Origin: an uncultured virus (IMG/VR IMGVR_UViG_3300033156_000724)
Lineage: Duplodnaviria; Heunggongvirae; Uroviricota; Caudoviricetes
DNA: 64,000 bases
Virus record (IMG/VR): IMGVR_UViG_3300033156_000724
Strand: one strand, 5' to 3'
Part shown: positions 4,150 through 53,403 of the stretch, piece after piece
How positions within the stretch are numbered: position 1 is the stretch's first letter
Layout of the letters: every line of letters begins with the position of its first letter
Notes under the pieces: model-generated
What the model saw: the letters and a program-made list of their open reading frames with translations, nothing else
Told to the model about the DNA's origin: nothing
Databases searched by the model: none
Position numbers and translations under genes: made by a program

Positions 4150-4157
4150 AGGCAGTT

Positions 4158-5858: not shown

Positions 5859-8800
5859 ATGGCTGATAAAACACTAACGCTTGGAACAGTCTTTACTGCT
5901 AATATTAGTAGTGTTACCGCTGCTATTGGAACATTGAGGAATGAAATGGCGCTCCTTAATAAAGGAATGACCAGTATTGGATCTCAAGCTTCAGGTGCGT
6001 CCAAAAAAGTTTCATCGATGACCAGTCAGCTAAGTAAGGCGAGCGCTGGTACAAAAAAATTAGGCAATGCTCAAGCATGGACTGGTAAACAGATAGGTAA
6101 AGTTACTGGAGCATGGGAAAAACTGAAATCAGCTATGAAAGTCACTGCGTCATATGGCCTTGCATCCATGGCTATTTATGGTATTTACCAAGCGCTGCAA
6201 TCAGGCATCACCGAAATTATCAACTTTGACCAGGGTCTTAAAAATCTGCAAGCTATTTCTGGCGCAACAGCAGCACAAGTAATGGTAATGGGTGACGCTA
6301 TCAAAAGCGTTGCTAAAGAAACCAAGTTTTCAACCGTTGAAGTTGCTGATGGAATGGTGTTACTTACTCAAGCTGGTTTTTCAGCCACCGAAGCCATGGC
6401 TGCTATAAGGTCTGTATCTTTATTAGCAACTGGTACCTTATCAAGCCTTCAGGTTACTTCTGATTTACTTACTACCACGATCAGGGCGTTTAGTCTTGAA
6501 GCCACGGAAGCTACTCGTGTAGCTGACGTCATGGCTAACGCCATTAATAAATCAAAATTAACAATTGATAAACTTAGAATATCCTTTAATTTTGTTGGTT
6601 CAGTAGCTGCTCAAACTGGTTTGTCTCTGGAACAGACAGCTGCATCAATGATGGTGCTTGCTAATAGTGGTTTACGGGCAAGCACAATTGGTACCGGGCT
6701 CAGGCAAGTGTTAGCTAGATTAATGGCTCCTACTGGTAAGCTCCGGGAAGCATTTGAACAACACAATATTGAATTAGCTAAGGTAAATCCACGATTAGTT
6801 GGGTTTGAAACAGCGATTAAAAACCTTCTCCCCGTCATGTGGGATAGCGAGAAAGGCGCTGTCAATATGGCAAAAGCATTCGCGCTTTTTGGTTTGCGAG
6901 GGTCCCAGGCTGCGGGGATACTTGTGAAGGCTTTTGCTGGATCTGAGTATGCGACCATGCTTGAAAAAGTATATGAGGTTGGTGCTTCGGAAGCAATGGC
7001 CGGTATTCAGGCAGAAGGTTTGGGTGTTAAACTTAAAAATTTGGCTGATAGATTTAAACTTGTGGCAGTTGCTTCAGGAGAAGCTGGCGTTGCTCATGCA
7101 ATTGGATTGCTGATAGATGTTCTTAGAAGCGCTGCTGGTTTAATGGAGGCATTTGCAAAGAATGTTGTTGGCTCCACACTTGTTGCATGGGGCGCATGGT
7201 CTCTTGTAATTGTTGGTATTATAAAAAGTTTTAGAGTTTTAAAGTCTGTTATGAAAAGTATTGCTGTGTGGACTGGATTTCGAGCAGCAATAGGTACTAT
7301 GATCTTTCAGTTTAAAATGCTGAATGCGACGCTTCTTGTTTCAAATAATTATGTTAGAGGATTAAAAGCTGCGTGGATGGCATTTACATCTATGATTGCA
7401 AATATGTCGGTAATGGGTAAACTTGTTTTGATCTTTGGATTGGCGGCAACGGCCATTGGTCTTTTATCGGGCAGAACTAAAAAATATATTGAAAAGCTTG
7501 CAAAAACTGTTGAAACAAACAGGGCGGCTATTGATTCAATCAGGCAGTATTCAGATTCGCTGGAAAACTTGAATGAAAAATTACAAAGGGGCGAGGATGT
7601 TACAGCTCAATATACTACTACAATTGAACGTCTAAAGAAGGATCATAAAGATTTGGCTTTGTATGTTGATTTTAACACTGCTAGTCATGAGCAACTTAAT
7701 CAGGCTATGATGGATATGCAGTGGGATAAATTCAATGCTGGCCTCGACGATTTAACTAAATTGGTTATTGCTCAGTCAGAACGTGTTGAACATCTTCGTA
7801 CAGTCTTTGCTAATCTTGATACAGATATTGCCCTTACTAGTCTTGGAATAGTGGGTCCTGATATAAAAGATGATGAGAATGTTGTTAAAAAAACATTTGA
7901 AACATGGGCCATGGGTCGGCAGGCATTGGTAGATTTAGCTAATACTCAACAATCATATATCGCGGCCATGGTATATTTTACAAAAATAGAAAAACAGAGC
8001 GCTGATGAAGCAAGAGAAAAGATCAAAATATATTTTGCAAAACACAATGCTATTGAAAAAGTAACGGATGCGCTCAATCAATTTAATAAAGCTCTTGAGA
8101 AATCATCAAAAATTGATCCTACTATAAACTTGAAAGATATTACAAAAGAATATGAATCATATTATAACACGCTCGACCTTCTTGGACAGGCGCATTTAGT
8201 TCAGGAAACAGCCAGCTCAATGTTGGCACAAAAACATCTTGAAGCTAATCTTCAGAAAAAAATAGGGACCCATAAAGATGCATGGAAAATTATTGGGGCT
8301 TTGATTGGAGAAAGTCAAGCCAAGATTTTGATGAAGCAAATAGATACCAACAAAAAAGAAAAAATGAGTGCAAGTGAATTAGTTGAATTTAAAAAAAGTG
8401 AGCTGAAAAAATATATTGATGCTGTTGAGGCCGCTTATGAAAAAAGTGTTGTGTCCGAGAAGGATTCATATAAAGATTCAATCGCTGTTATAAAAGAAAC
8501 ATCTGATACAAAACTCGCCAATGAAAAACTGACCACTATTCAGCGAAACAATATTATTGCGCAATCTCTTGCGAAAGAAAAGAAATTAACAGAAAAGCAC
8601 AACAAAACTCTTGAGGATATGGCGCAAAAGCATGAAGGCGTAATGATAGGCATTAAATCTGCCGGCGCTCAACTTGCAATTGATGATAAATCCGCAGATA
8701 TTGCTACATTAAAAGCAAAGAAAAAACAAGCGGATATGGAGATAGCTATTGAATTAAGCAAGAGTAAGGCAATTCTTGAGATTAAAAAACGGGCAAGCAT

Positions 8801-9944: not shown

Positions 9945-10549
9945 TGTTTATTCTTGAACCGGCTGAAACATGCTGCGCATTCTTCCCTCGATGGGATAAT
10001 GACGTTATTTTAAAAAGACGGTTTGTTACTGTTATTGTTGCCGCTGAGGAAGGCGACGAACAAAGAAGCGGAATTCACCCCACGCCTGCTCATTCTTTGT
10101 CGTATAATTTAATTACCAGGAATATTGCTGAAACTACTTATTTAAAGAGAAGGTTTAACAAATATATTAATAAAGTATGGGCTGTGCCAGTATGGCCGTA
10201 CAATATGGAATTAACATCCGAGGCAACTGCAGGGTCGAACGTTTTAAATGTTAACAGCGCTTTTTACAGAGAGTTGGATAGTATTAGTTCAAATAATGAA
10301 TATGCAGATGTCATTTTGGTGGCTGATTATAAAACAACAGAGTCGGGGGAAATCGTGTCTTTTGATGAAACAAGCATTATACTAGCTCAACCTTTAAGTT
10401 CTACATGGAAACAAGGCTCTAAATTATATCCGCTAATGAAAGCAACTTTAAATTATGCCATTAATCTTGAATCTCTGACCCCTGATAACGCAAAGATAAA
10501 TTTTGAATTTCATGAGTCATTCAGGTCGATTGTCTCTGGTGAGGTGTGA
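9944..10549 (+). CDS. Tail tip / distal tail protein
   Basis: Directly follows the tape measure gene; GDEQR...WAVPVW motifs. Confidence 0.55.
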   Translation: MFILEPAETCCAFFPRWDNDVILKRRFVTVIVAAEEGDEQRSGIHPTPAHSLSYNLITRNIAETTYLKRRFNKYINKVWAVPVWPYNMELTSEATAGSNVLNVNSAFYRELDSISSNNEYADVILVADYKTTESGEIVSFDETSIILAQPLSSTWKQGSKLYPLMKATLNYAINLESLTPDNAKINFEFHESFRSIVSGEV

Positions 10550-23296: not shown

Positions 23297-23307
23297 AATG
23301 CTTCAAC

Positions 23308-25461
23308 CTATTTAAGTGGCAATTCAATTTGTTTTTCCTGAACAGACACGGTATATTTCTCTGATTTCAGCTTGGGTTCTGGGTAGAACTCCAAGCTTGG
23401 TGTAATTTCGACCTGTTCGTTGTTGCCATCTAGGTTCAGTTTGATTGTCAAATTTAGATCATAGCCACTTTTCTCAAAAGCTGTAGCGATGTTCTGATGA
23501 TAATTATTAATTAGATTTGCCACTTCTTTTAAAATTTGTTCAATTGTTCTGTCTAAGTTCATGGTTTTCCTCCTCCAATTTCTGTGCCCGTGCTTTCCAT
23601 ATTCTCAATTCCTGTCTTAATTTTAACAACTCAGCTGCTCGATTGCCTATTGTCGCAGCATGATGAATGCCGTAACCGGCAAAAACGATAATCAAAATAG
23701 AGAAAAATGATATTACTATTACCATTATGTCATGGGTTCCCGGCATTTAGACCTCCTTCGCATCCAGAAGACACTCCTCTTCTAATTCTGCGTACATAGT
23801 TTCATAAACATAGTTAGCCATAGCCAGCGGTAAATCAATATTCTGAAATTGTATTTTATTTATCTCCGCCCGCTCTCTACACGGTTCTTCGTGCCTCGAC
23901 CCCGGAATTTCCGGCGCAATCTCATAAAAAACCCTGACCGGAATCTTGATTTCTGTATCAATATAATTCTGCACCATTATTCCCCCCCCAATTTAATTTT
24001 TATCCTCTTTGATCATCTTGTTTAGCTCATCAATGAGCTTTTTTGGTGTCCTGGCACTCCGACACCCTTCTTCTATTTTGATTTTTCTTGTTCGCTTTCT
24101 TTGTTTTTTAATTCGTGCTCCCATATTGTTCATCCTCCTTAAAATAAAATATCCATTACATCAGCGGCGCTCCTGGTGGTATGCTTGTGATCTAAGGAAG
24201 TAATTTCTTTCCTCATAGCAAAAACAACATCACCAAAAGCTTCTATTATTGTTTCTGCAGTAGTGCTATCTGCCGCCATTGCCATAGCACGCCACTTAAT
24301 AAATTTTTCGACTACATCGTCAGAAGCAATAACCATCATATTCAATCCGATTCTTTGCAATTTAATAGCCATTGCTTTCACTTTCCCCTGATTTAATTTC
24401 GAGGATGCAAGCATGTCCATAACCACACCAATAAACTCTGAATACAGCTCTACCTTTTTAGTCTGTGTCATAAATTTCTCCTTTCTTCTTTAATTAGCGA
24501 ACTCCTTCTTCACTATACCATTTCACAAATGTATCTAAGTCCAATCCTTCAACCTCAATCTCCCCAACATCAACAAGCAATGTTGCTGTTGCCCACTCAC
24601 CTTTCATTAAATTGATTTTGACTCCCCGCACTACATTCGAGATATCTATGCCAGTCTCCATATGCTCAACTTTTACATGATCTGATATTGCCACAAACGG
24701 GTGGCTATCAGCAGCCGGCTTCAGTGTTATCTTCAATCCCATACAACCTCCTTACAACTAACGAGAAAATTACTCGCTCTTTTTAGTCATGTGAATTTCA
24801 TAAATGACGGTTCTTCCAACCTTCATGCTCCAAAACTCTGTGATGTTGAATGAAAAAGTTTCATTATCTTAGCTTTGGCCTTATAGTATAGGTTTTCCCT
24901 ATATTACATATAGGGGATGTCTGATTACTAAGGAAATATTCGAATATCCTCATTAGATTTCCTCTTTTTTAATTGATAATTTAGCTGTCGTTTAATAACA
25001 TGCAATGGCCAAAAAGGTTTACCACATTCGTCGCAGCTTATCGAAGCCAACAATCCCGAATGCGCGACACCACAATGGGGACATACTATCGCTCCATGTG
25101 GAAGAATAGCCTGGTATGATTGTTCAGGTGATTGTTTTGATATTTCTGTTTTATCATCACCATTTTCGGTCCCGCTTGATGCACCATCTTTATAGGCACG
25201 CAACAGAGGTTCGGCTGTTTGAAAACTGTTAATCGCTCGAATATTATAAAGACCATATTTCACGCAATACCGCTCGCCAGGACCAACATATTCGCCGCAT
25301 TCCGAACATGGCCCACCTTCAGCCTCAATTTTGAACTCAAGAAGCTCGTGCCAAATAGCACAAGCATCGCATGGATTATCATTCAGTCCCCTGCCTCCGC
25401 ATGAACAATAATTATTGATAATGTTCATTAGCTGGTCTTCGCTTATTATTATCTTATACAT
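23308..25461 (-). CDS. Run of small hypothetical ORFs (23308-23562, 23540-23746, 23747-23977, 24139-24471, 24494-24742, 24928-25461)
   Basis: Co-oriented and tightly packed, mostly with GGAG-type RBS. Confidence 0.55.
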
Positions 25462-25468
25462 TTATACC

Positions 25469-25528
25469 TCCTATCGTTTTTAGTTGGTCTGCACTACTTT
25501 TTGGCGTTAGAGTCCAACGTTGTTGCCA
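25469..25528 (-). repeat. Degenerate attC-like site
   Basis: Similar to the 26279/29091 family (ctttttggcgttagagtc); cores eroded. Confidence 0.5.
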
Positions 25529-25738
25529 CAAACCATTCACGCCACACTTCAGTTATCTGCCAGAACATAGCTCTAATATTTGTAAATATCATGCGAGCAT
25601 TCTTACGTTTGTAATGTTTTACAGCCGACATAAAAAAAGCCAGCGCACCATTGATGTGAAACCACACCAGGAAGTATTTAGCTTTAGGATTTCTCGACAT
25701 TTTCCTAAACACAAGATAATATGTTTTAGTGATAAGAT

Positions 25739-25834
25739 TCATAATGTCTGAACTCACCAGTGGGCAGGAAACTCAAAATGTCGATTTACTCCGATAGCCG
25801 ACCCTGCCCATCTGCGTGCAGCGCCTGGTTATCA
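25739..25834 (-). repeat. Long attC-like site
   Basis: tcataat...tgggcagg/cctgccca inner stem...ggttatc. Confidence 0.7.
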
Positions 25835-26033
25835 AAATATCGTTTTTCAGTTTTCTATTTTGCAATTTTCAATGTCTGATATGGTCCTATGCCAATGTCG
25901 GAATCATAATACATCGGATAAATATACCATCCGTCTGATTCTCGGCATATCCCGCCATATTTCAGATGCGTATACCATCCAGATTCTTCTTTTCTCCATT
26001 CAAAATGACTGCCACTCATAATCTAAATTCCTT

Positions 26034-26091
26034 TTATAACCACATTAGTTTAGCAGGCGGCTATTCGCTCCGCTGGAACGCTTTGTTATGC
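26034..26091 (-). repeat. attC site
   Basis: ttataac...gttatgc, 58 bp imperfect palindrome. Confidence 0.8.
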
Positions 26092-26278
26092 TATCCTCTC
26101 AATCGCCTTAGCTAACGGCAACCATTTCGATACACGTCCCCCACATTTGGCGCATATATATCCGTGATCGTCTGTATACACTTTTCCATATTTTTTACAT
26201 GCGGGGTTGTCCAGGTTGCAATACCTGCCTCCAGGCTTCTCAAATTTTATTTTGTTTTTTTTTCATTTTTTCCTCAAA

Positions 26279-26339
26279 GCATAAAACTTAGCTGACCTGC
26301 GGCTGCTTTTTACCATCAGAGTCGAGCAACTGGTTGTGC
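26279..26339 (-). repeat. attC site
   Basis: gcataaaac ttagctgacc...gtcgagcaactg gttgtgc; ORF 26288-26548 reads into it (HNQLLDSD). Confidence 0.8.
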
Positions 26340-27194
26340 TGTATATGTATATTATCTTCCAAATCCAAGCCACATTTCTTGCAGGAATTGTCAATTCCAT
26401 TATTTACATAGTAATGGGCAAAGGTTTTTTCGAGCAAGCTTATCCTTTTCTCGTTTTTTGTTGGTGTGTCAGGATAGCAAACATGACAAGAAACTTTATA
26501 TTCTGTCCCGCATTTTTTACATATTACACCCATAATTACTCCTTTCACTCGTCGGCCGCCACATTGTTTATAAAAGTTTAAGCTCGTTCGGCCATACTAG
26601 GCATTTATGATTCCCCATATTATATCTTACATCTGGCTTTATATCAGTGTAAATAATATATGCAGCTACATGCTTACTATCTATTGATGATTTTATTATT
26701 TTTTCTACTGTAGCATTACCCAAATAATCATGGACAACCCTATCACCAATTTTAAACTTTTCCGCTTTTTTCATTTTTTTCTTTAAGTTTAGCAATTACA
26801 AGGCCAACGGCATAATCATTAACCCATCTGGGGTCATCCATGAATGCCATGACTGTCGCTCGGTCACGATTAAGATCATACAAAATCCCCTCGGCAGGTT
26901 GTTTTATAAACTCCTCTATGTCTGCCTCTTTTGGTCCGTCCAATGTCATAAAAACAATTTTACCTTCTTTTTCTTTTTGAAGGACCAACTCTTTTAATTT
27001 CTCTTTATCAGTCATGGTTCATCCCCTTATCGCTATCAATTTAACTGAAGAAATATCCTTCACTTTACATGTACAGCTTTGTTGTTTTAAAGAATAAGCG
27101 TCTTCCGCTTGGTTCCATGCCCATGATTGGGCAGGTGGAATCTTAGCTCTTTTACAATATTTCATTTTCCATCGCCATTTGTACATATTTACCC

Positions 27195-27245
27195 CTCTAA
27201 TCAGCCGCCGTGCTCTTTTCGGTCAGCTGCATTGCTTGATTATGC
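27195..27245 (-). repeat. Truncated attC-like site
   Basis: cagccg...cggtcagctgcattgcttgattatgc. Confidence 0.6.
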
Positions 27246-27423
27246 TTTTTAGCAGAAAACCTATGAATATAAGTATCGCCTCCAGTATATGTTATCCTAC
27301 AATCTTCTCTTCGATCTCTGTGCATTGCCCTATGACGTGTAATTCCAAGATAGTGAAAACTTTTTTTACAGGTATGGCAATAACAATTTTTAAACCTCGT
27401 CACTTTCATTTTACCCTTTTGAA

Positions 27424-27478
27424 GCATAACAGATTAAGTCAGCAACGTTTTTCAATCTGCCAGGACAACTGATTATCT
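27424..27478 (-). repeat. attC-like site
   Basis: gcataac...gtcagca/tgccaggac...attatct. Confidence 0.65.
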
Positions 27479-27727
27479 GTCTCATCTTTCACCAATTCTG
27501 GTTTACCGATAAAAAGTGCTGCACTTCTAAAAGCATCAAAACATTGATCATGTACGCCGTCTTCGTCATTGGCCCAAATAATGATTCCTTTCAATAATGC
27601 TTCAATATGGTTTTTAGCTTCTTGTTCCACATTGTAGTGTGGACAGTTAGGGTGATGTTGTGTAAGTAACAACACATTATCACGTGCCCAATTTTTACAT
27701 TCGCAATCTATCATATTGCTCCTTCCC

Positions 27728-27849
27728 CGATAACGATTGAATTAAGCGATACGCCCACAAATCGGGGATACCAAATCATAGCCAAGCGGATCGGGCTTCA
27801 TGTCTTTGCAGCACGGATTTCTCACATCTGCTTTAACGGGTTGGTATCG
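27728..27849 (-). repeat. Long attC-like site
   Basis: cgataac gattgaattaagc...gctttaacgggtt ggtatcg. Confidence 0.6.
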
Positions 27850-28092
27850 CCAACCCGTTTGTGTTTGATACCAATCACACATTCTTGTGTTCCCATAACA
27901 GCGCATGCAAAACTTAGAGTCTATGCCATTGCATATTGGACAACCCTTTTTCCTTTTGTCTTCTGATAATGATTTCATTTTTTACCTGTTTGTTTTTTTT
28001 GTTATACTGTTTTTATATTTTTAAAACTTCTCGCATAAGGCCATGTTTTTCACATATTTCTCGGCACCTTAAAAAATGAGTGGTTAAGTCCA

Positions 28093-28440
28093 TCATTTCT
28101 GTAGCACCATTTCTGTAGCACGGCCGCCTGTAATTTCTTTTGATGTTTTTATTAACATCGCAAGCGTTTCAACAAAATCCTTATTATGCACTTTTTTGCC
28201 AGCTATTAATGCTCCTTCCAACGGCTCTTTATAATCCCGTCCACTGAACACAGGGGTTATACCCGATGTTCTTTGTTGCCAAAGACGGTTAGCTTCCATG
28301 CCGTCTTTTGATATTGGCCCTTGCGCGCCGCATGAAACACATTTTATTGCTTTCCACGGTTTGCCTTTTGTTGTTGATAAAAGTGTTAGTTTCAGATTCT
28401 CGGTTTCTCCGCAAAAAGGACATTTTACCAAATGATCCAC
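28093..28440 (-). CDS. Lar-family (restriction alleviation-like) zinc-ribbon protein reading through an eroded attC
   Basis: KCPFCG...IKCVSCGAQGP...ANRLWQQR; internal ttccaac...gttatac at 28216-28262. Confidence 0.65.
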   Translation of the reverse strand: MDHLVKCPFCGETENLKLTLLSTTKGKPWKAIKCVSCGAQGPISKDGMEANRLWQQRTSGITPVFSGRDYKEPLEGALIAGKKVHNKDFVETLAMLIKTSKEITGGRATEMVLQK

Positions 28441-28457
28441 TTTTTATTTCCTCCAGG

Positions 28458-28516
28458 ATATAATATACTTAGATTAGCCGCCCATTCTTTGAGTCAGATA
28501 GATTTACTTGTTAGTT
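28458..28516 (-). repeat. attC site
   Basis: atataat...gttagtt, 59 bp. Confidence 0.65.
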
Positions 28517-28667
28517 TTTTTGCTTCTTTATAATCATGCCGTAGGCCCACACATCGAACCGTGCCTTTTTGATCTTCTATATATTTTCTTTGGCGATGAG
28601 AATAATCCCCGTAAATCATTTTTCTTATTTTTTTTGATTTCTTGCCATTCATCTTTGTCTCCTTAAA

Positions 28668-28718
28668 AACTAACGTTTAATTAAGCAGCTTTTGTCTGCC
28701 TGAATTTCTTGGTTATGT
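28668..28718 (-). repeat. attC site
   Basis: aactaac...aattaagcag/ctgcctgaatt...gttatgt. Confidence 0.8.
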
Positions 28719-28794
28719 GTCGCCCCCACTCTGGAATCAAACCAGTAGGCTGAAGACTAGGACAGCCAGCCCGCCCATCAGGGATCAGGAGGGC
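28719..28794 (-). ncRNA. ORF-less cassette with tRNA-like fold
   Basis: Minus strand: GCCCUC/GGGGGC terminal stem, CUGG-UUUGAUU-CCAG T-like arm, GGCUG/CAGCC stem; bounded by two attC sites. Confidence 0.4.
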
Positions 28795-28854
28795 ACATAA
28801 CACTAAACTGAGCCGCCGAAGTTTTTATTGATCGCCCCCAGTGACTTGTTGGAA
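28795..28854 (-). repeat. attC site
   Basis: acataac...gttggaa, 60 bp. Confidence 0.8.
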
Positions 28855-29090
28855 GGAAATTTTTGGTATATTAATTTCCTTTATAGTTTTTTTTGCTAAA
28901 TCGATTTCATAAAGATGACCAACATAACTTTCTGGCTCAAAATTAGAAACCGACTGTTCTCTTTCCCAAAGTAAAATTGCTGCCTGTTTTGGCGATGAAA
29001 CAACTTTTTGAGTTACTGGCATATTTTTTATGCCAGTAAAATAATGAGACATTAAAATAATAAATAATAGTATTTTCATAACAAATTTCC

Positions 29091-29151
29091 TTCCAACAAT
29101 TTAGCTGACCGATGCTACTTTTTGGTGTCAGAATCTAGCAGCTTGTTATCT
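29091..29151 (-). repeat. attC site
   Basis: ttccaac aatttagctgacc...tctagcagctt gttatct. Confidence 0.8.
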
Positions 29152-30842
29152 GTCTTCGGTATTTTTACTGTGGGCATAGGAATTCGTGGACATTTAATAG
29201 CTGGTTCCTTGTAATTACATCCCCATCGAACACAATGAGAAGAGCCAAAAATGTCAGCAGTGTCAAAATATAGCCGATGCCCAAAAATTTTACATAATAT
29301 ATTCACAACAAACTCCTTTATGTATGAATCAGCGTTGAGTGTTCATCCGCCGGACCGGCTTGTTAAGTGTTTTATAATTATTAAGTAAAACTGTTGAACA
29401 TTTTGTGCCACGTTGAACACTCGATTGCACGGTAACACCCTCAACAGCTAAATCCCTATCTCGAATAGAGGCTAAAATATGCTCTAATGTCGCGGATATT
29501 ATTAAGGTTCCGTCATTATGGACAAGTTCCGCATAGATGGTATTTGGTCTCAGCTGACCATGTTCGTTTCCATCCATTCTAATATTTTGTAAATGATATA
29601 TTTCCATTTTTTTCTTCTTTCTTTGATTCCGGTGCTATGATTTTAGAATAACGAATATAATTCTCATCAATATTCACTTCCACTATTATAAAACCTGGAA
29701 TAGTAGTTTGAATTATTTTTTTTATCATAGCAGTCTTATCAGTTGACTTTGATCCACTTATTGAGACTGTAATAGTTTTTTCCCAAATATCTTGATTGAT
29801 AATCATAAATTTTGCTTCTATATAATTCAATAGATCCTGAACATCTTTGTTTGGCATGTCCAATTTGGGATTTATTTCTTTTATGTATTCAAAAAAATCA
29901 CGCCTGTCTTCTTCTGTTAAAAAATTCATATTTCCCCCTTTTCCGCTATCCCGACAACATGGAAATCAGCAATCTTCTATCTTTGGTTTTGGCAGATTTC
30001 CAACATTATCTAATTCGGCGGCCAGCTTATGAAAATAAATTGCACACATATCACCGTAATCATCAACAGGACTGCCGTCCTCGTCAAGAATATTACTAAA
30101 TTCTTCCGGGTTTTCGGAGTATCTCCTTGCCCATTCGTTAAAAATAATAGCCATTCTTTTGTGAGTAATGCTTGTTGTTGGTGGTGCCTTTGGCGCATCG
30201 GGCTTTACCGCGTTTGCTGGTCTTACATTACTTGCTTTTTTCATAGTGATTACCTCCAACGATTATTTATTATTAGATTCCCAGTGAGTCACTTCAACAT
30301 AAGCCTCGTCATGTGTATCAATATCCCACATAGGCTTTCCAATTACATCATTCATCCCTAAAAACTCCGCTTCAATTTCTTCTGTAGAAGAAACACTTCC
30401 AAACCGCCAATAATTTACACGGCACCGTGTTTTTTGACCAACGCTGGGCAACTTTTCTTCAACTGAAATCATAATATATCCCTCCGATATTTACCTTTTT
30501 TGTTATATTTTATCCCAAAGCTCATCAGGCAGTCATATATTATTGTCTTTTTTTTCAAAAGCGCTCCCAGCAGTAAAAACAAGCTCAATTTCCTGATCTT
30601 CAATAGACCTTAGAAAGGCTATAGTTTTATATCCTTCTTCTTGCGCTTCAATTTCTCCAGGTAAAATATTTCTATATCGTTCAATTAGATTATCTTTCAT
30701 TTTTACTTTCATACTACCCTCTCTTCAGGATAGATATCTTTTCGTTTCCACTTTTATTGCGCCGTAAAAGTTTACGTGTCATTATATCTTTCCGTCGTAT
30801 GCTTTTTGGCGGCGCCACCTCACATACACGCCGGCTTAAGAA

Positions 30843-30900
30843 GACTAACGTAGAGTTGGAGCTGTAAGCATAACGAATCAGCTGAAACGGTTTGTTATAA
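30843..30900 (-). repeat. attC site
   Basis: gactaac...gagctg/cagctg...gttataa. Confidence 0.75.
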
Positions 30901-31106
30901 ACCCTCATAACGCCAAGGATTCTGTAAACAAATTTGCCACCGACCACCGTTTTTAATTATATTTAACGCTGCTTCTTTAGTTTTTGGATTGTGCTTCAAT
31001 CCTTTAACACTATCAAATCTGTCCAATTTACAATTTATGCCCCTATTAGTATTTATTGGGCCAGAACAAAATTTCTTACAAGGTATCATAATAGCCCCCT
31101 TTGGGT

Positions 31107-31186
31107 TTATAACGTTAAACTGACTTGATCATTTGCAATTTCCGAATTATAATATGCTTGTTATGTGCAAATGTAATTTGTTATGC
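31107..31186 (-). repeat. attC-like site
   Basis: ttataac...catttgca/tgcaaatg...gttatgc. Confidence 0.7.
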
Positions 31187-31315
31187 GGTGTTGACCCTGG
31201 ATCATATTTTTTATTCAACGTTTTCGTGCTGTAGGTAGCATTGACATTATAATGAATGCTCTTACCGATATTTTCATATCAGACCTTCACACTTCCAGCG
31301 ATTTCAAAGAAAGCC

Positions 31316-31362
31316 GCATAACGTTTGCCTTCACCTGACCAGACCGAAAAACTTTGTTATCC
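31316..31362 (-). repeat. Truncated attC-like site
   Basis: gcataac...gttatcc; ccgcataac is complementary to gttatgcgg at 31180. Confidence 0.6.
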
Positions 31363-32017
31363 ACCTGTTAATTTACTGCTGCATCATATCCCCCTGTATA
31401 AATTAACAGAGTCTTCTAAGAACAATCGAACCAGTCGGTGTTTCGTCCCCTGCGGAAGAGTTGTCTTTATTGCGGAAAAAATTTTATTTGCATCTTCATT
31501 GTACAGGGTTTGTGCTTCTTCCAAAGTGTCCGTTTGTGGTAAGTCTGTGTTTATTTCAATCACTATCCCATTGATAGATTCCTCTTTTCTTATCGGGTCT
31601 GCTTTATGTACAATAATTGTATGGTTCATAATTCCTCCGTAAAATAACAATTTTACCTTTTCCCAGTCAGTACACGTCTCAGTATCCTCATGCACATCTT
31701 TTTTGTGCAGTTCACACCATTTCCATTCACCCAACGGGTCGAGTTCGTGGTGTCTATCGCTGCAATGTTTACAATTATTGCAAAACTCTTTCATGTCATA
31801 ACCGCCCGCATCACAGGCTTATCCTATGTGTGTTGCTACTGCCTGATCTGTAATTTAAAATTTTGCGCCGGCATCCTAAAAAGATTTTCAAACATACCTT
31901 GATTTTCAACATCTTTGGGCCATTTCTGAAAATATACCTGTCCTTTTTTGATCATATGTACATGAATAGCTATGCTGTTTCTCTCAATTACCATTCCTGG
32001 TTTTATATTAATCATTT

Positions 32018-32404
32018 TCATTGTAGGCCCCTAACGTCTGGACTCACGGGCGGTGGTCTTTTGCCATCCCCTGGCTTGTTATGTATTTTGCGTAGCATTA
32101 ATTCAAGCCTCGATAACGCATTCCATGCTAAGTGCGCTTGATGCAATAACCCAGAATCTTTGTCTTGATCCTCATGGCGTTCAGCGAGAAGATGACGCCA
32201 GAGTGCGTCTGTGTATCGAATAAAGCCATTCTCTACGCTTTGCCACCCGCCACGAGAGTATTTAATTGCTCCAAAAGTCCCTACTTTGGCAACCTCCGTT
32301 AAGGCTAAAGAAAAATCAGAAAGAACACCTGCAAGGACTTTACCAGCATCCAGCTTTGCGCCTTGTTCGTGTTGATTTAAACCATTTGGATCTTGTTCAT
32401 GCAT
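32018..32404 (-). CDS. dATP/dGTP diphosphohydrolase domain protein (DUF5664-like)
   Basis: GAKLDAGK, FGAIKY..GGW, YTDALWRH, DSGLLH.AHLAWNAL. Confidence 0.8.
   Translation of the reverse strand: MHEQDPNGLNQHEQGAKLDAGKVLAGVLSDFSLALTEVAKVGTFGAIKYSRGGWQSVENGFIRYTDALWRHLLAERHEDQDKDSGLLHQAHLAWNALSRLELMLRKIHNKPGDGKRPPPVSPDVRGLQ
32029..32084 (-). repeat. attC site
   Basis: ccctaac...gttatgt, overlapping the gene 3' end (HNKPGDG). Confidence 0.7.
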
Positions 32405-32418
32405 ATTGTTCCTTTATG

Positions 32419-32479
32419 GTATAACGGTTAAGCTGACTTGCCGCTGCTTTTTGTCGTCAAGTCCAGCGGCTTGTTAGCT
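32419..32479 (-). repeat. Canonical attC site
   Basis: Minus strand AGCTAAC-AAGCC-GCTGGAC...GTCAGC-TTAACC-GTTATAC; L'' is one base longer than L' (extrahelical G). Confidence 0.9.
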
Positions 32480-32648
32480 GCTTTAACCAATGTTTGCATA
32501 TCTTGCTCAATATCTCTTAAGGCAAATACAATTGCAATCCAACCGCAAACAAGCCTTAAAGCCGGGCCATCAAACTCAAACTTCCATCCGCCATATTTCC
32601 CGACACAAAAATAAAAAGTAAACCCATTCATTTTTTATCCTTTCAGCC

Positions 32649-32784
32649 AGCTAACGTCCTAATAACCTGCATGTAGGGCTTGCACACCCCTTAAAAGAGC
32701 ACTCCCACCCATCTTCCCCTGGCAATTATCGACTCTTACCGACAAGCCGACCCTACGCGTCAGAGTTTGTTTGATTGATTATAC
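32649..32784 (-). repeat. Long attC-like element, copy 1 of 3
   Basis: agctaac...gtagggcttg...caagccgaccctac...attatac; near-identical to 33020-33108 and similar to 36296-36382. Confidence 0.75.
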
Positions 32785-33019
32785 GTTTCTGCTTCATCAA
32801 CCCCCGGATCATCTTCTTGACATCATCCATACAGTCTATGTTGAACACACAGCGAGACGATGGCCAAAAGCAGTATTGACGCCATGCTCCATACCACTTG
32901 ATTTGCCCAAGCACGAGACCGGAAGACTTCGATAAAATATTCCATATTTCGGTTTTGCCGGTTTCTCCAACTTTATCAAATTCCATGTAACGGCTTTCAA
33001 TCATGTTCCCTCCTTAGAA

Positions 33020-33108
33020 ATATAACGTCCTAATAACTTGCATGTAGGGCTTGCACACCCCTTAAAAGAGCCCTCCCACCCGTCATCCCCTGGCAATTAT
33101 CGACTCTT
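33020..33108 (-). repeat. Long attC-like element, copy 2 (one arm lost)
   Basis: taacgtcctaataac.tgcatgtagggcttgcacaccccttaaaagagc...ggcaattatcgactctt shared with copy 1. Confidence 0.75.
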
Positions 33109-33262
33109 CCTCAACCTGAACGGTCACGGAAATCGTCAGAGTGTGTGTTTGTGTGCACACTGGACACTTCACATGTTTAATTACTTCCAAACCGAAGCAG
33201 GGCTTAATTTCGACTTCAAAACCCTGCATGCATCTGCCGCATGGGATGATTATTTTATACAC
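33083..33262 (-). CDS. Small zinc-ribbon protein (59 aa, not in the ORF track)
   Basis: GGAGG RBS and GTG start; MYKIIIPCGRC...KCPVCTQ. Confidence 0.55.
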   Translation of the reverse strand: MYKIIIPCGRCMQGFEVEIKPCFGLEVIKHVKCPVCTQTHTLTISVTVQVEEESIIARG

Positions 33263-33560
33263 CTACGCCTCCATTTGTTCACGAATTTTGGGATGAGCAA
33301 CTTTTAAGTGTCAAGTTAAGTACCTAATTACCCTCTATATTGTTATACAAACATATTGCCAAACAAAACCAAAGTACAACAACAAACCAATCACAAACAG
33401 CACTTAAATCTTTTTCAAGCAAATTTATAACAAGATTAGTAAGAGTTATAAATACACATAAAATAATTGCAGATATATATATATTCATATTTTTAAACTT
33501 CTCTGTAAAAAGTTGTGCAGTAGCTGCCTTAAACTCCGTTGTAAGGATTTATTAGCATTC

Positions 33561-34211
33561 CTACCTAAAATCTTTTGCTTTGATTTTGGCAATGACCCGT
33601 TCTCCTCTTCGATTAAACAATTCAACTTTTGGACGCATAACAAGCCCTTCAGGTAACATTTTTCGTAACTTCGATTCGTACCCACCTTTGACCATTGCAA
33701 CACCTTCAAGCAACGTGCCCTCACCAATAACGGGTACTGTCTTAATCATAAGCTTCTCACCGATATCCTTAACGTTGTGATGTTCAAGCCACATACCATT
33801 AATATTCACATCGAAAAGGATAAAACTAACGCCGTTTGAAATGTAATTGCCACCACCTTTTTGGATTTTGGCTCCATAACCTTCACCATACAAACATAAT
33901 GGAGGCAACTCATTAGTTATGAAGATTTCAGGATAAAAAAGTGCAGCAAGTTTATCAAGGAGGAATTTTGGAATATCTGCCCGGTCTGTTTTCCCGGCGA
34001 AAGTAACGTGTTCACCGTTCCACTTCACACGGATATTCGTGCCATCTACTTTCTCGGTAAATATCCATATATTATTCTTGAGATAGTCGAACTCAGGCTT
34101 TGCAAATTGACCTTCCAGTAATGTTTTATGCTTCGTCGCAGGATCACGTAAATATACTGTTTGAATTTTATGATACTCTTTCATTTTGTAATTTCTCCAT
34201 TTGTCAACCAC
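33561..34211 (-). CDS. RNA ligase (Rnl2-like nucleotidyltransferase)
   Basis: Motif I EKVDGTN, YGEGYG, FILFDV, EGLVMRP, AKIK. Confidence 0.85.
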   Translation of the reverse strand: MVDKWRNYKMKEYHKIQTVYLRDPATKHKTLLEGQFAKPEFDYLKNNIWIFTEKVDGTNIRVKWNGEHVTFAGKTDRADIPKFLLDKLAALFYPEIFITNELPPLCLYGEGYGAKIQKGGGNYISNGVSFILFDVNINGMWLEHHNVKDIGEKLMIKTVPVIGEGTLLEGVAMVKGGYESKLRKMLPEGLVMRPKVELFNRRGERVIAKIKAKDFR

Positions 34212-34213
34212 AA

Positions 34214-34684
34214 TTATTTATACAGTATCTCGGTCATTTCTTCATCTGCTGATTTTTTTATCTTTTCCACTCTTTCCTTTAACAACATCTTGGTTTTTTG
34301 TTGTTCTTTTTCATAAATTTCAGCAATTATTTCTTCCTCTGCTAATTTTTCTATCTTTTCCACTCTCGCCTTTAACATTCCTTCTAATAAAATTAGATAA
34401 TTGATAGAATAGCCGATCTTTTTGTCAATCATTGCGTCTGTTAACTTCTCAGGCGAACGATCTGACATTTCAACTAAATCTAACACTGAAACAATATGTT
34501 CTACCCACATACCGACCAGGGCTTTTTCTGGTGTCGTGTCTAATATTCTCGCCGCAATGTTAAAATTATGGTATCTATCACAACCCATCGCATATTCTTT
34601 AGCCTTTTCTGATAATACAGACCGGATTGATTCTATTCGGTCATCCACTATTTCATCAAACTGTGTATCGTATTTCATAAACAC
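34214..34684 (-). CDS. Phage nucleotide-modification-associated (MazG-like fold) protein
   Basis: LSEKAKEYA...DRYHNF...INYLILL. Confidence 0.5.
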   Translation of the reverse strand: MFMKYDTQFDEIVDDRIESIRSVLSEKAKEYAMGCDRYHNFNIAARILDTTPEKALVGMWVEHIVSVLDLVEMSDRSPEKLTDAMIDKKIGYSINYLILLEGMLKARVEKIEKLAEEEIIAEIYEKEQQKTKMLLKERVEKIKKSADEEMTEILYK

Positions 34685-34685
34685 C

Positions 34686-34761
34686 TCCTAACGCAAAGTT
34701 CACTTATCGGAAAGCCGACAAGGATAGTTTTTTGCCGTCAGAGTCGAGCGACTGATTATGC
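34686..34761 (-). repeat. attC site (possibly hybrid)
   Basis: tcctaac...gccgtcagagtcgagcgactg attatgc. Confidence 0.7.
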
Positions 34762-34959
34762 TGTTCCAATACCTTGATTCGCTTCTGTAGCAACATGTTT
34801 TCAGCTTCGAGATTGTTTATTTTAGCTTGTTGTTCATGCCGCTCATTTATTTCCATCTGTCGAGAAATCCATTCACATTCTTTAGGATTAAAACAATCTC
34901 TACCAATTACACCTCCACAACTGTTACATATCATAATCATTTCTCCTTTCCCCAAAAAG

Positions 34960-35014
34960 ACATAATATCTAAGCTGAACCACCGGTATCAGTCGGCTCAA
35001 GCGGCTGGTTAGAT
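34960..35014 (-). repeat. attC site
   Basis: acataat atctaagctga...ctcaagcggctg gttagat. Confidence 0.85.
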
Positions 35015-35226
35015 TTCATCCCCATAATCCTGCATATCACGTTCCCGTTCGGCTAATATGCATTGACTCACATGATAGGAATTATGAAGCTCCGCAAGTA
35101 GCCAATCGGGGGTATATTTAGGATTCACCCTCTTAAGAATTCTTTCAATACTATCTACAACAGATTTTGCCTGAGTCCGATGATACTTTCTTGCTGACTT
35201 TGCTCCCAAAATAACCTCCTTTAAAA

Positions 35227-35286
35227 ATCTAACGTCTTAGCTGACCTGCGGCGACTTTTGGCGTCCGCTCAAGCGGCTGGTTATAT
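35227..35286 (-). repeat. Canonical attC site
   Basis: atctaac gtcttagctga...ggcgac tttt ggcgtcc...tcaagcggctg gttatat. Confidence 0.9.
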
Positions 35287-35817
35287 AGGTAAGTTCACTG
35301 TTGATTTAACTTCATTACCCCAAACATCCCAGCCATCTCGCACTTGCCGTGCAAAGATATCGGCTCTATTCTCAGCTAAAGATTTTATCATCTCATAAAA
35401 TTTATTTGGTTTTTGGGAATGCTTAATATTTGGTGCTGAAAAAGCTAAAGGGATTAACGGTCGTTTTGGCCATAAATCAGGTTTTTCCTTATATCCAACC
35501 AATATGAATTCAACATTCCATCTAAAACCAAACAATGGCATCCCTGCAGATTTACCATAAGTTTTTTTCCATACACCTGTAACAAGGTGACTAAACCCCC
35601 ATGTCTCTAATACCTCTTTAGCATCAAAGAGATGCTTTTGGGTAGCCCACAAGAATAACCAACAATTGTCATCTGCAATACTATCTATAGGCAATGATTT
35701 GATTTGTTCTATGCTCATAGTTTTGTAATCCATTGTCACCTGTTTTGGCCGTACCTTGCGTGTAAGCTTCTTTACTGGCCAGGGAGGATCAACAACAATT
35801 AATCCATATTTTTTCAT
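35281..35817 (-). CDS. MT-A70 family adenine methyltransferase
   Basis: VDPPW, LFLWAT, HSQKP, DIFARQ.RDGWDVWGNE; stop codon lies inside the attC R'' core; start taken at MKKYG. Confidence 0.88.
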   Translation of the reverse strand: MKKYGLIVVDPPWPVKKLTRKVRPKQVTMDYKTMSIEQIKSLPIDSIADDNCWLFLWATQKHLFDAKEVLETWGFSHLVTGVWKKTYGKSAGMPLFGFRWNVEFILVGYKEKPDLWPKRPLIPLAFSAPNIKHSQKPNKFYEMIKSLAENRADIFARQVRDGWDVWGNEVKSTVNLPI

Positions 35818-35839
35818 AAGGTCTCCTATACGAAATGCC

Positions 35840-35897
35840 ATATAACATTTAGTTTAACAGGCAAGCTTTTCCGCTCTGCTGCAATGACTGGTTATAT
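35840..35897 (-). repeat. attC site
   Basis: atataac atttagtttaacagg...gttatat; similar to the 26034 site. Confidence 0.8.
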
Positions 35898-35956
35898 TTT
35901 TCCACTTCAAAATAGCTCTGCAATAGTTGCACACTTTATCCCCTCTACGTTTAGAT

Positions 35957-36015
35957 GAATAATATAAAGCTAACTTGTGCTGTCTTTTGGCGTCAAGTTG
36001 AGCGACTTGTTAGCA
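35957..36015 (-). repeat. attC site
   Basis: aagctaacttg...caagttgagcgactt gttagca; ORF ends ANKSLNLTPK. Confidence 0.8.
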
Positions 36016-36295
36016 ATTTTTGTGAGATCATCTAACACAGATAAATCATTATTTAGAAAGCGCGTGATTATGGTGGCAGGATCAATAGTACAACTATGTA
36101 CTAATTTATCGCTATTGCAATAAGGACAACTTGTCTTATGATCAAAATACGAAGCATGCCATTTTTTACAAGAACGGCAGCAATAGACAAAGGTTACGTG
36201 CATACTATAGTTATATTTCAATTTCATCCTAATAATCCTTTATGGTTATATTAATGATTTGGAAAACTTGAAAACTTCCACAACACCTCCTCCAA

Positions 36296-36382
36296 TAAGG
36301 TTTGCACACCCCTCAGAAAGGCACTCCCACCTGTCTTCCCCTGGCAATTACTGGACCCTACCGACAGCCCAACCCTATACAG
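36296..36382 (-). repeat. Long attC-like element, copy 3 (diverged, array-proximal)
   Basis: ttgcacacccct...cactcccacc..tcttcccctggcaatta...accgaca..c.accct. Confidence 0.65.
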
Positions 36383-36398
36383 TATTCTTTGATTTTAA

Positions 36399-36800
36399 TT
36401 ATAATTTCTCCAAAAAATTAAACTCCTTTAGATTGCTTGAGCAACAATCAATTAGCTCCTGTGTTGTTACAATCCCTCCATCTATACATTTCACCAAATC
36501 TTTTTTTGTTATTCGTTTACCGTATTTATTATAGTTTGCATATATAGTTTGTTTGGATTCAGAAATTCCGAAGTGCTCCCGAATTTCACGCTGTTTCCAT
36601 CTACCTTTTGTTAGCTTAATCATTGCTCTTAATCGTTCTCCTACAAACTTAGTAATTTTTATAAATAGCTCTTCTTTTTCAGAGTCCAGCATTTTCTCTG
36701 GATTTTTCATCATCATGCTCCTCGCTTGGCTGTGGCCCGATTTCTCTGGGAACCCGAAACGCAGAACGTGATGTTCTTTCATGGTTATCAAGAACAACAT
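36399..36800 (-). CDS. Hypothetical protein, possibly HTH (true start probably near 36716)
   Basis: KQREIREHFGISESK HTH-like segment. Confidence 0.45.
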   Translation of the reverse strand: MLFLITMKEHHVLRFGFPEKSGHSQARSMMMKNPEKMLDSEKEELFIKITKFVGERLRAMIKLTKGRWKQREIREHFGISESKQTIYANYNKYGKRITKKDLVKCIDGGIVTTQELIDCCSSNLKEFNFLEKL

Positions 36801-42525: not shown

Positions 42526-42766
42526 CCTTTTCTTTGCTCCCCCAACATTTGCTTGGAGCATAGTTATACAAAAAGTGTACGTAAGCCGGAATATTTAACA
42601 TATTTTCCTTATCAGCATATCCAACAGCATTGCTTAAATCGTTCTCAAAAACCGCTGTAAGAAAGTTACCGGCCGGGACACCCTTCTCAATATAACGTAC
42701 CAAAGAAGGCCGCATTCTTTTCGGAATTTCGTAGACAACACCAGTATAAACAAATTTAAACTTCAT
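42467..42766 (-). CDS. Conserved-looking phage hypothetical protein
   Basis: GNFLTAVFENDL...APSKCWGS. Confidence 0.6.
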   Translation of the reverse strand: MKFKFVYTGVVYEIPKRMRPSLVRYIEKGVPAGNFLTAVFENDLSNAVGYADKENMLNIPAYVHFLYNYAPSKCWGSKEKVKKWVSEHRKALSGAAQRV

Positions 42767-43682
42767 CTTCTACCCCCTTTTGCCTTTTCCCCCACCACAT
42801 TGATTGGTTCACCCTGCGCTGCAACATCTTAGCAGTTGGATGAATGTAAAAGCGTTGAATTGTTGAGGGTGTATCCCCCAACAGGAACGCAATATCCATA
42901 ATACTCATACCACCCTCATAGTGCAGCCATGTCGCTACATAATGTCTGAAGGCATGAGGCCCACGACCGTCGGCGCCGCGTTTAAGTCCAAGATCAATCA
43001 GCATAATATCAACTAGCGCCTTAATCGCTCTAACAGACGGAAATAAAACTATATCCTTTACAGTAGCAGGAAATAGTTTATATCTTATTGTCATTGTTCT
43101 CATTCTGATATATTCTGATAATATATCCTTGGTCCTATCAGAAAAAAAGACCGAACGAGGTTCAGTCTTTGAGTCACTAATAAATACAGTATTTTCATCG
43201 AGGTTGATATCGTTTAATCGAATGCGACTTATTTCTTTACACCTTGCGCCGGTATCAATCAAGAGGTTCACGATTACTTGATTTCTAATCCAGTTCTGAG
43301 CTTTTGGAAACGTATAGTTCCTGCATGCTTCAATTTCTTCATCAGTAAACCATCGTTTTGCAGCCCTGATTTTTGCCGCTTTCTTATCAGCGTACTGAAT
43401 TCGATACCGATACTTACTTTCAAAATTCAAAGATGCTCTGAAAAATATCCTCAGAATGGTCAGATATAGTTGAATTGTCTTACCTGAACATCCGGTATCT
43501 TTTAAATGCTTAACATAATGTTCAACAAGATAATCTATTTCAACACCGTAAGATTCAACATGATTGCAATAATCCGCGAATCTTTGAAGGGCTTTCCGAT
43601 ATGACATCCTTGTGGCAGGTGCCAAATGTTTACGCGTTTTCAAAAAACCCTCCATTTTTTTGTGGTGCGCGTACCATTTCAC
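42756..43682 (-). CDS. Tyrosine recombinase (XerC/D-sized)
   Basis: DTGARCKE (R), DSKT (K), HAFRH, LLGD, QRFY (Y); GTG start at 43682 after AGGAGG. Confidence 0.9.
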   Translation of the reverse strand: MKWYAHHKKMEGFLKTRKHLAPATRMSYRKALQRFADYCNHVESYGVEIDYLVEHYVKHLKDTGCSGKTIQLYLTILRIFFRASLNFESKYRYRIQYADKKAAKIRAAKRWFTDEEIEACRNYTFPKAQNWIRNQVIVNLLIDTGARCKEISRIRLNDINLDENTVFISDSKTEPRSVFFSDRTKDILSEYIRMRTMTIRYKLFPATVKDIVLFPSVRAIKALVDIMLIDLGLKRGADGRGPHAFRHYVATWLHYEGGMSIMDIAFLLGDTPSTIQRFYIHPTAKMLQRRVNQSMWWGKRQKGVEDEV

Positions 43683-44353
43683 ACTGCTCCACCTCCTATT
43701 TTTACTACAGTATCGGGGTCCGGGCAAATATATCCGTCATAAACCCAAATTTCTTTTCTGGAAAAAACAAAACAATAAACTTGATCGCTCCAGTCTTGCG
43801 CAATCAGATTAATTGCTCTGTAGTCCGGCGAATAAGCATTATGTTTATTTGCTAATTCAACCAAGAGCTTATTACTTTCAGCATGGAATTTATTCCCCCT
43901 TTCCCAAATCTTATCACCCTCAGCCAAAAGCTTATTAGCCTCCATCCAAAGCTCATTTCCCCTATTCCAAAGCTTATCACTTTTCGCCCAAAGCTTGTCC
44001 CCTTCAAGCAAAAACTTGTTACTTTTAGATAGAAATCTTTTTTCGTTATTACCTTTAATTATAAGCCTGTTTCCTTCAGCTTGAAGTTTATTTATTTCAG
44101 CTAAGATTTCGTTTCTTTCAATCCAGAGATTACTACCTTTGTCCCAAAACTTACTTGCTTCATCCCAGCATTCGTTCTCCCTATCCAAAAACTTATTTGC
44201 TTTATCCCACAACTTAAAACTATAGGACGATTCGTCAAATATCTTTTCTGCCAAAGCAATAGCCTGTTTTTCGTTTATGGCTGCTACTCCAACATATATA
44301 CCAGATGCTTCTTTCATAATTTTGTCTCCCCGCGCCGTTGTTTGATTAAACAT
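43679..44353 (-). CDS. Heptad-repeat Trp-rich protein
   Basis: Repeating KLWxxGN / KFWDKGS 7-aa units. Confidence 0.6.
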   Translation of the reverse strand: MFNQTTARGDKIMKEASGIYVGVAAINEKQAIALAEKIFDESSYSFKLWDKANKFLDRENECWDEASKFWDKGSNLWIERNEILAEINKLQAEGNRLIIKGNNEKRFLSKSNKFLLEGDKLWAKSDKLWNRGNELWMEANKLLAEGDKIWERGNKFHAESNKLLVELANKHNAYSPDYRAINLIAQDWSDQVYCFVFSRKEIWVYDGYICPDPDTVVKIGGGAV

Positions 44354-53343: not shown

Positions 53344-53403
53344 ACCGGGCGGGGAAACAATTCCCCCGTCCGGTGATAGAGCCGAGTGAGCAACAACTCG
53401 GCG
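53344..53403 (-). terminator. Tandem GC-rich hairpins downstream of the parB-like gene
   Basis: accgggcgggga...tcccccgtccggt and gccgagt...actcggc. Confidence 0.5.

Follow-up and report, generated by a model that had tools for sequence, protein, structure and literature searches.

A tiny GC-rich cassette without a gene in the attC-type array of a tailed phage

In T4-like phages the small accessory genes of the hyperplastic region are organized as modules bounded by promoter-early stem-loops (PeSL), with a repeated intergenic structure between them that is thought to promote their shuffling. In integrons the cassettes pass through a circular form, and their classic signature is that the start of the cassette is complementary to the R'' box of its own attC, with the crossover at G|TT. 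ORF-less cassettes have been described in integrons, and in the part of the literature drawn on here some of these have promoters (those of the Treponema-type oral integrons) and others encode regulatory RNAs (those of Xanthomonas) (PMC8876359); ORF-less, non-coding integron gene cassettes are also dealt with in the portion of PMC6557892 that we used. Clusters of attC sites without an integron integrase (CALINs) have been described in phage genomes by Qi et al. 2023 (PMC9892861), and in the sections of that article used here the box G|TTRRRY is quoted and folded single strands are given as the acting form of attC-type sites, whereas ORF-less cassettes are not mentioned in its section 3.4. ORF-less cassettes and phage attC clusters are both already published. 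The element described here is a 74-nt GC-rich stretch that lies, with no gene of its own, in a phage array of this general kind.

The window, by which we mean the whole stretch of 64,000 nt that was analysed, comes from a marine tailed phage. As far as about 20 kb the plus strand carries genes for a tape-measure protein, a PKD-domain protein and other tail proteins, and a long block of minus-strand genes from 20 to 54 kb codes for a UvrD-like helicase, a SNF2 helicase, a tyrosine recombinase, ParB, a sliding-clamp-like protein and a DNA polymerase/primase-like protein. After the ParB gene, at 53344-53414, the intergenic DNA is GC-rich (63%) and contains two inverted repeats that can form hairpins; this stretch may be a terminator or a parS-like site. 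Between about 36.7 kb and 23.3 kb the minus strand carries small genes that are separated from one another by a repeated motif of 51-80 nt, the consensus of which is yTAAC-MAG-yCGCT..GACGCCAAAAAG..GGTCAGCTAAG-AC-GTTAG. The positions of this array and of the other features are given in Table 1. The sites of the array were identified with a home-made family model together with the rule that R'' pairs with the start of its own cassette; the model was made from 17 sites, namely 10 from the window, 6 from the viral contig L013 and 1 from the viral contig L012, and both flanks of the element were excluded from it. Between 23000 and 37000 there are 13 sites with E<1e-3 and 19 with E<0.05, every one of them on the minus strand, and with default filters the model found no sites elsewhere in the window. 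The cargo of the array includes an MT-A70 methyltransferase, a dATP/dGTP diphosphohydrolase-like protein, a Lar-like protein, DUF551 and DUF1660 proteins, and also an RNA ligase, which the initial annotation had correctly placed in the same array as the element.

Table 1. Positions of the element, its flanking sites and other features; positions are those of the window unless a contig is named
Feature	Position	Strand	Details
Cassette array holding the element	23297..36678	-	between DNA polymerase/primase-like gene and UvrD-like helicase gene
Cassette of the element	28801 (G|TTATGTG) -> 28674 (G|TTAG)	-	74 nt cargo + CACATAAC + ~51-nt divergent attC-like site; ~127 nt
GC-rich cargo, 74 nt	28720..28793	-	0.61 G+C; cloverleaf-like minimum-energy fold
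R'-type box GTTATGTG	28794..28801	-	closes upstream attC-like site, opens cassette; predicted crossover G|TT
R''-type box CACATAAC	28712..28719	-	first part of the cassette's own attC-like site
Upstream attC-like site of 84-aa ORF cassette	28795..28852	-	26.4-26.5 bits, E 1.2e-7 to 8.9e-7
Downstream attC-like site, divergent	28668..28718	-	8.7 bits, E 0.045 (weak); GTTAG at end
84-aa ORF, preceding cassette	28825..29079	-	no family match
52-aa basic ORF, following cassette	28494..28652	-	cassette start GTTAGTTTTT (28674)
Second ORF-less cassette, AT-rich, 143 nt	31180-31322	-	GTTATGCGG/CCGCATAAC bounds (9 bp), then 80-nt attC-like site
ORF-less unit, ~165 nt, in another phage's array	L013 ~7038-7202	-	GTTATACCCC/GGGGTGTAAC bounds, 9/10 complementary
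D1 copies, window	32652-32737, 33023-33108, 36274-36359		
D1 copies, other phages	L013 ~9960-10100; L012 ~4050-4170		
MT-A70 gene	35281-35841		array cargo
RNA ligase gene	33561..34211	-	PF09414, E 4.9e-17; phrog_548, E 1.6e-18
Xer-like tyrosine recombinase	42756..43727	-	sole recombinase seen in window; 6 kb upstream of array

That the units of this array behave as cassettes is suggested by their ends. A unit begins with GTT and 5-12 further bases that can pair with the AAC-ending box of its own 3' site, and in all ten cassettes that were delineated R'' fits the start of its own cassette better than it fits the R' that follows, the summed scores being 86 and 52 of 100, respectively, although seven of the ten were chosen by that complementarity and the score for the own start is biased to that extent. 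In the three consecutive units around the element the arms formed by the own start and R'' are 15, 8 and 10 bp long. Generic GTT...AAC terminal complementarity of at least 8 bp is not above chance (16 compared to 10.3 +/- 3.1, and 19 in control stretches), and only chained pairs that are placed at boundaries and have arms of 8-15 bp count as evidence. As single strands the sites fold only moderately, which limits how far the array can be called an integron. When they were folded as single-stranded DNA in their array context folding was weak, and the z values ranged from +1.7 to -1.8 in nine out of ten, the site at 32473 being the other one with -3.7/-4.0; when each site was folded along with its own R' five out of ten had z < -2.9 on both strands, which is partly so by construction. 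A mobile array is further supported by the findings that in a related phage, whose helicase is 67% identical, there is no array and the polymerase/primase-like gene adjoins the helicase gene, and that the same family of sites is found between unrelated genes in L013 and L012, which are otherwise unrelated viral contigs. In addition, a contig from the marine metagenome run X1 departs from the window at 29322, right where an attC-like site has its last base, and beyond that point it has GTTAGGAGG, a new start codon and a different gene; the other seven loose X1 ends among those listed are within genes or just ahead of a gene start. The break at 29322 lies at the predicted crossover and is a difference between related phages at the level of the cassette. 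An attC word from the array found L013 alone again in viral contigs and had 0 matches in species genomes, and a 17-mer common to two sites of the window had 0 matches.

The only recombinase seen in the window is Xer-like. It scores 109 bits with NF040815, for which the cut-off is 220, and 41.9 bits with the integron integrase model TIGR02249, for which the cut-off is 265 and which it matches over the N-terminal half only, and its best solved relatives in the PDB are XerA, a XerC-like protein and XerD. No IntI adjoins the array as it would in a complete integron. Since the recombinase is only Xer-like and there is no integron integrase, the array is best described as an attC-type cluster without IntI, that is, as CALIN-like.

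The RNA that was quoted in the initial annotation is the minus strand from 28794 to 28718 in every one of its 77 letters. It was described as GC-rich in an AT-rich setting and this is so, because its G+C content is 0.61 whereas the mean of the window is 0.387; only 0.09% of the 76-nt windows within the 64 kb equal it, and most of the other top windows are genic. There is no paralogue of the GC-rich cargo within the window. It was also described as a unit of its own between two attC sites, and this too was borne out. The upstream site is complete: it covers model positions 5-62 of 64, terminates in GTTATGT, and its R'' region pairs with the start of its own cassette at 29083-29099 across 15-17 bp. 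Its score was obtained with a model, R2, that was trained without both of the flanking sites. The downstream site is weak but, with model R2 and filters off, it is aligned on the right strand and at full length (positions 3-62 of 64), and when it is folded with its own R' as single-stranded DNA it gives -8.1/-8.3 kcal/mol with z of -3.8/-3.7. The start of the cassette, GTTATGTG, is complementary to CACATAAC in a run of 8 and at 9 of 10 positions, whereas CACATAAC pairs with the R' that follows at only 6 of 10. Thus, as in integron cassettes, there are core sites of the GTTRRRY type, GTTATGTG at this start and GTTAGTT at the next one, with a 3' attC-like site in the order R''...R', and R'' is complementary to the start of its own cassette. 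In the cassette that follows, the complementarity of own start and R'' is 10/10. Since GTTATGTG ends the upstream site and CACATAAC opens the downstream one, the 74 nt between them make up the cargo of a cassette in its own right, about 127 nt long.

These boundaries also bear on whether the element could be the inner, variable part of one long attC site, which is the least probable of the readings considered here. The family of sites does include long variants, of about 115-150 nt, whose centre is GC-rich and conserved, as D1 shows. However, the site upstream of the element is complete alone and ends in its R' GTTATGT, the unit downstream of it is full-length and starts with its own R'', and GTTATGTG...CACATAAC are in the order R' then R'', which is the opposite of the order R'' then R' in an attC. 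The 3' end of the element and the upstream site have TGGGGGCGA in common, and the alignment of the two scores 26 compared to 21.6 +/- 3.7 for shuffles, which is not significant.

D1 itself is a conserved, GC-rich module of non-coding sequence in which TAATTGCCAGGGGA and AGGGGTGTGCAA are invariant, and it has no Rfam match. It is present in five copies across three phages, one of them at the head of the array, and it lies within the long attC-like variant and ends right at the GTT box. It has a long-range stem, ACGTGTAGGGT/ACCCTACACG, in which there is one compensatory change between L013 and L012. A separate observation on the sites is that seven ORFs, with ends at 35970, 34704, 32428, 29115, 27197, 26288 and 25494, run into an attC-like site and have the common C-terminal tail N-[KQ]-x-L-[DN]-x-[DT]-x-K-[KS]. 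All four CTN Leu codons are used among the copies, and selection may have acted on the peptide in addition to the DNA site.

The element had been called ORF-less. The sole open frame is one of 40 codons, from 28803 to 28684, which begins with a GTG that overlaps the preceding site and has no Shine-Dalgarno sequence, whereas in the neighbouring genes AAGGAG-type sites are found 6-9 nt ahead of the start codons. That this frame codes for protein now or did so recently, or that it is the remnant of a repeat protein, is highly unlikely in our estimate, but the points on both sides need to be given. The frame is open across the whole element, and when it was compared by HMMER with 1.84 billion proteins there were 3 matches with E of 1e-7 to 1.3e-6. 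The best of these is a PKD/DUF285 protein whose 24-aa repeats (GC.GLTG.IPEWG.NIT) resemble GCPSLQPTGLIPEWGRHIT, a motif that occurs nowhere else in the six-frame translations of all sequences examined. On the other hand, the three matches belong to three families of repeat proteins that are unrelated to one another, and in each of them 3-8 stretches are matched. The scores are sums over repeats that are not independent, and the best single stretch has about 25 bits, which is not significant at the size of the database. The R'' box and the attC-like site code for one portion of the match (I-T-x-x-F), and the preceding site supplies the GTG start. There was no Pfam match at E<=10, a word-based search of longer proteins was empty, the codon-position periodicity of G+C was not significant (p 0.24), and two of the three differences that the X1 contig has in the element alter a residue, the W included. 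The similarity of the 40-aa frame to repeat proteins is a weak lead.

The stems that had been named in the initial annotation are those of the minimum-energy fold of the 77-mer, which has -29.0 kcal/mol. In this fold 8 pairs, interrupted by one bulge, form the closing stem, which encloses a CCC/GGG hairpin, a GGCUG/CAGCC arm, and a CUGG/CCAG arm with the loop UUUGAUU. Its stability is ordinary, as z is -0.43 for the core and 61 of 200 dinucleotide shuffles fold equally well; once the flanks are included z is -0.98 to -1.5. The cloverleaf topology, taken as three branches closed by a single stem of 5 bp or more, appeared in 16 of 1000 dinucleotide shuffles, in a count that was made post hoc. 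A tRNA has an anticodon loop of 7 nt, G18G19 in the D-loop, U54-U55-C56 in the T-loop and a T stem of 5 bp. The element has instead an anticodon-like loop of 14 nt, a D-like stem of 3 bp whose UGAU loop is without GG, a U at the position of C56, a T stem of 4 bp, and no CCA.

The suggestion that the element is a tRNA, or a tRNA mimic or decoy, did not hold up, because it fails ARAGORN at default, Rfam and these consensus features. ARAGORN at default called 0 genes in the window. When its thresholds were lowered to 80% it called a 'tRNA-?(ag)' at 28722-28791 with an anticodon loop of 6 nt and an 'anticodon' of two letters, but this call was gone at 85% and 90%, and since there are 27 such calls in the 64 kb, most of them within genes, it is noise. 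With Rfam nothing reached the gathering scores, and in a search of the 700 nt at 28400-29100 nothing was found on the element at E<=10, tRNA models included. Any Rfam family as an identity for the element, be it a ribozyme, a CRISPR repeat or an sRNA, was therefore rejected as there was no covariance-model match. The idea of a mimic of a CRISPR repeat (RNA anti-CRISPR) was dropped too, since in this search the element matched nothing in Rfam. We consider it very unlikely that the cassette carries a tRNA-like mimic or decoy, for example one that draws off a host anticodon nuclease with the RNA ligase as its partner in tRNA repair. What speaks for it, apart from the call at 80%, is the cloverleaf with a T-like loop of 7 nt between bases that are like G53 and C61, and an RNA ligase within the array. 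The ligase, however, is 4.8 kb and many cassettes away in an array that is shuffled and its proximity therefore has no weight, and the 3' half of the element has no match in 185,579 species genomes. In a limited full-text literature search no paper was found that has an integron gene cassette and a tRNA-like RNA together.

Homologues with compensatory changes were looked for and none was found, as beyond a near-identical viral record and one X1 contig no homologue was found. The viral record, of 59.8 kb, is 99-100% identical with the element unchanged and is not independent. These searches relied on blastn with a single phage collection and on exact matching of words 18-26 bases long, and relatives of less than about 90% identity could have escaped them. 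By blastn neither 28000-29500 nor 28700-28815 had a match in 50,697 phage records. In viral contigs a 26-mer of the element had 0 exact matches, and of its 18-mers one had 4 matches and a second had 1, all of them by chance, the four being so judged because their flanks are unrelated. A 20-mer had 2 chance matches in metagenome contigs, and a 25-mer with two degenerate letters had 0 matches in the 185,579 species genomes. A covariance model of the cloverleaf found the element alone in 138,984 bases, made up of the window and 9 loci, and no loci related via the neighbouring 115-aa protein were found.

Over 28600-28856 the X1 contig is 98.4% identical to the window, with 4 differences in 257 nt, three of which are inside the element. 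On the minus strand U28728C is in a bulge, A28732G turns a U-A pair of the T-like stem into U-G so that pairing is kept, and U28756G falls in the long loop or else disrupts a G-U pair in the inner helix. A sequence with two of these differences folds as before, but in one with all three the anticodon-like arm is rearranged, and there is no compensatory change among them. The other X1 contigs are mostly 90-95% identical or lower; in the bands of 99 and above, 95-99, 90-95 and under 90 there are 1, 4, 9 and 7, respectively. Small parts of the window are present in two DNA sequencing runs, in which a part that lacks cover does not count as evidence, and among the runs listed none of RNA contains it.

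The same data bear on a possible but rather doubtful alternative, which is that the element is a structured RNA other than a tRNA that acts in cis in a polycistronic early transcript. It would then be a four-way junction with a closing stem of 14 bp between two ORFs, and it could be a processing site, a barrier that affects stability, or a small RNA that is released by processing. In favour of this the element is a GC-rich island within AT-rich non-coding sequence, the four-way junction is the minimum-energy RNA fold with a topology that few shuffles reach, the closing stem and two of the three hairpins persist in the X1 variant, and the region is well conserved in X1. There are also other conserved non-coding modules in these arrays, namely D1 in three phages, and for Xanthomonas ORF-less integron cassettes that encode regulatory RNAs have been reported, in the part of PMC8876359 referred to above. 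Against it, the folding energy is no better than that of shuffles, no Rfam family is matched, the element is a singleton in the homologue searches, and the variant with three differences rearranges the anticodon-like arm. Furthermore, when both strands were scanned for sigma-70-like promoters and for terminators no promoter-like or terminator-like site was found in or beside the element.

A role at the level of DNA is a good deal less probable. The folded single strand of the entire cassette could modulate recombination at neighbouring sites, or it could be a site for protein binding or for priming in a replication module. As single-stranded DNA the 136-nt cassette folds with -18.6 and -17.6 kcal/mol on the two strands, and the array is located between polymerase/primase-like and helicase genes. 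It is as folded single strands that attC-type sites act, according to the sections of PMC9892861 used here. But the z of these folds is unremarkable (about -1.4), there is no repeated binding motif, and there is no other copy.

That the cassette has these boundaries, that it lacks a gene and that no tRNA or Rfam signal is present are plain observations. In our best reading the element is the cargo of a tiny ORF-less cassette in a CALIN-like attC-type array of a phage and not a tRNA gene. Our first choice for the nature of this cargo, which we hold tentatively and at somewhat below even odds, is passenger or relic DNA. The unit of about 127 nt would have been inserted by site-specific recombination at G|TT sites as its neighbours were, and it would be transcribed only within the long minus-strand early transcript. 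The cargo itself would have no role in trans, and it may be a relic of foreign sequence richer in GC or filler that was brought in with its attC site. The cloverleaf would be a by-product of three short inverted repeats in GC-rich DNA, closed by the R'/R'' complementarity that is common to the array. The ordinary stability of the fold, the lack of a second copy in the 138,984 bases and the presence of other ORF-less units are all consistent with passenger DNA. Several points argue the other way. Phages have compact genomes, and in one with 39% G+C a stretch with 61% should decay unless it is recent or selected; the cloverleaf topology is rare in shuffles; the identity of the region in X1 exceeds that of most of that run's contigs; A28732G retains pairing in a short stem; and a relic made by internal deletion should retain a ribosome-binding site after R', and none is present. 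A functional and mobile RNA module is improbable in our judgement, although somewhat less so than a role of the DNA itself. The sole payload of the cassette would in that case be a compact four-way-junction RNA, tRNA-like enough for RNase P or for a defence protein that targets tRNA, and it would be shuffled by way of attC among marine phages beside anti-defence genes such as those for the methyltransferase, the Lar-like protein and the RNA ligase.

Two other units in these arrays have no ORF. The cassette at 31180-31322 is within a stretch of 436 nt that has no ORF of at least 42 codons on the minus strand, and sigma-70-like hexamers are found near it on both strands. The unit at about 7038-7202 of L013 has internal inverted repeats and no similarity to the element at 28720-28793.

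Should the cargo prove to be a working RNA, no payload of RNA alone would have been described before from a phage cassette array, and it would follow that attC-type recombination carries non-coding functions from phage to phage. On present evidence the element is no new RNA but a minor curiosity, which documents that tiny cassettes without genes are found in such phage arrays just as they are in bacterial integrons. Of greater value is the surrounding array, with its long series of attC-like sites that all run in one direction in a phage replication module without IntI.

Compared to a tRNA, the element has in common that its 77 nt can be drawn as a cloverleaf of four arms with a 7-nt loop on a short stem beside the closing stem, but unlike a tRNA it fails the ARAGORN and Rfam models. 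The array resembles PeSL modules in that small accessory genes are separated by a repeated intergenic structure. Unlike in PeSL modules, its repeats have the inverted AAC...GTT core of attC and the 5' end of a unit pairs with its own 3' site, which points to site-specific and not homologous recombination. The likeness to ORF-less integron cassettes is closer, as the element too has no ORF, has an attC-type site at its 3' end, and is in an array of gene cassettes that are otherwise promoterless. It differs from these in being phage-borne, in being much smaller (about 127 nt with its site), in being GC-rich with no sigma-70-like promoter on either strand, and in having no integron integrase near it. 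Finally, like the phage CALINs in the sections of PMC9892861 used here, the array has several attC-type sites in the same orientation between small accessory genes and a methyltransferase among its cargo, and unlike them it is long, with 13 strong and 19 total site matches over 13.4 kb.
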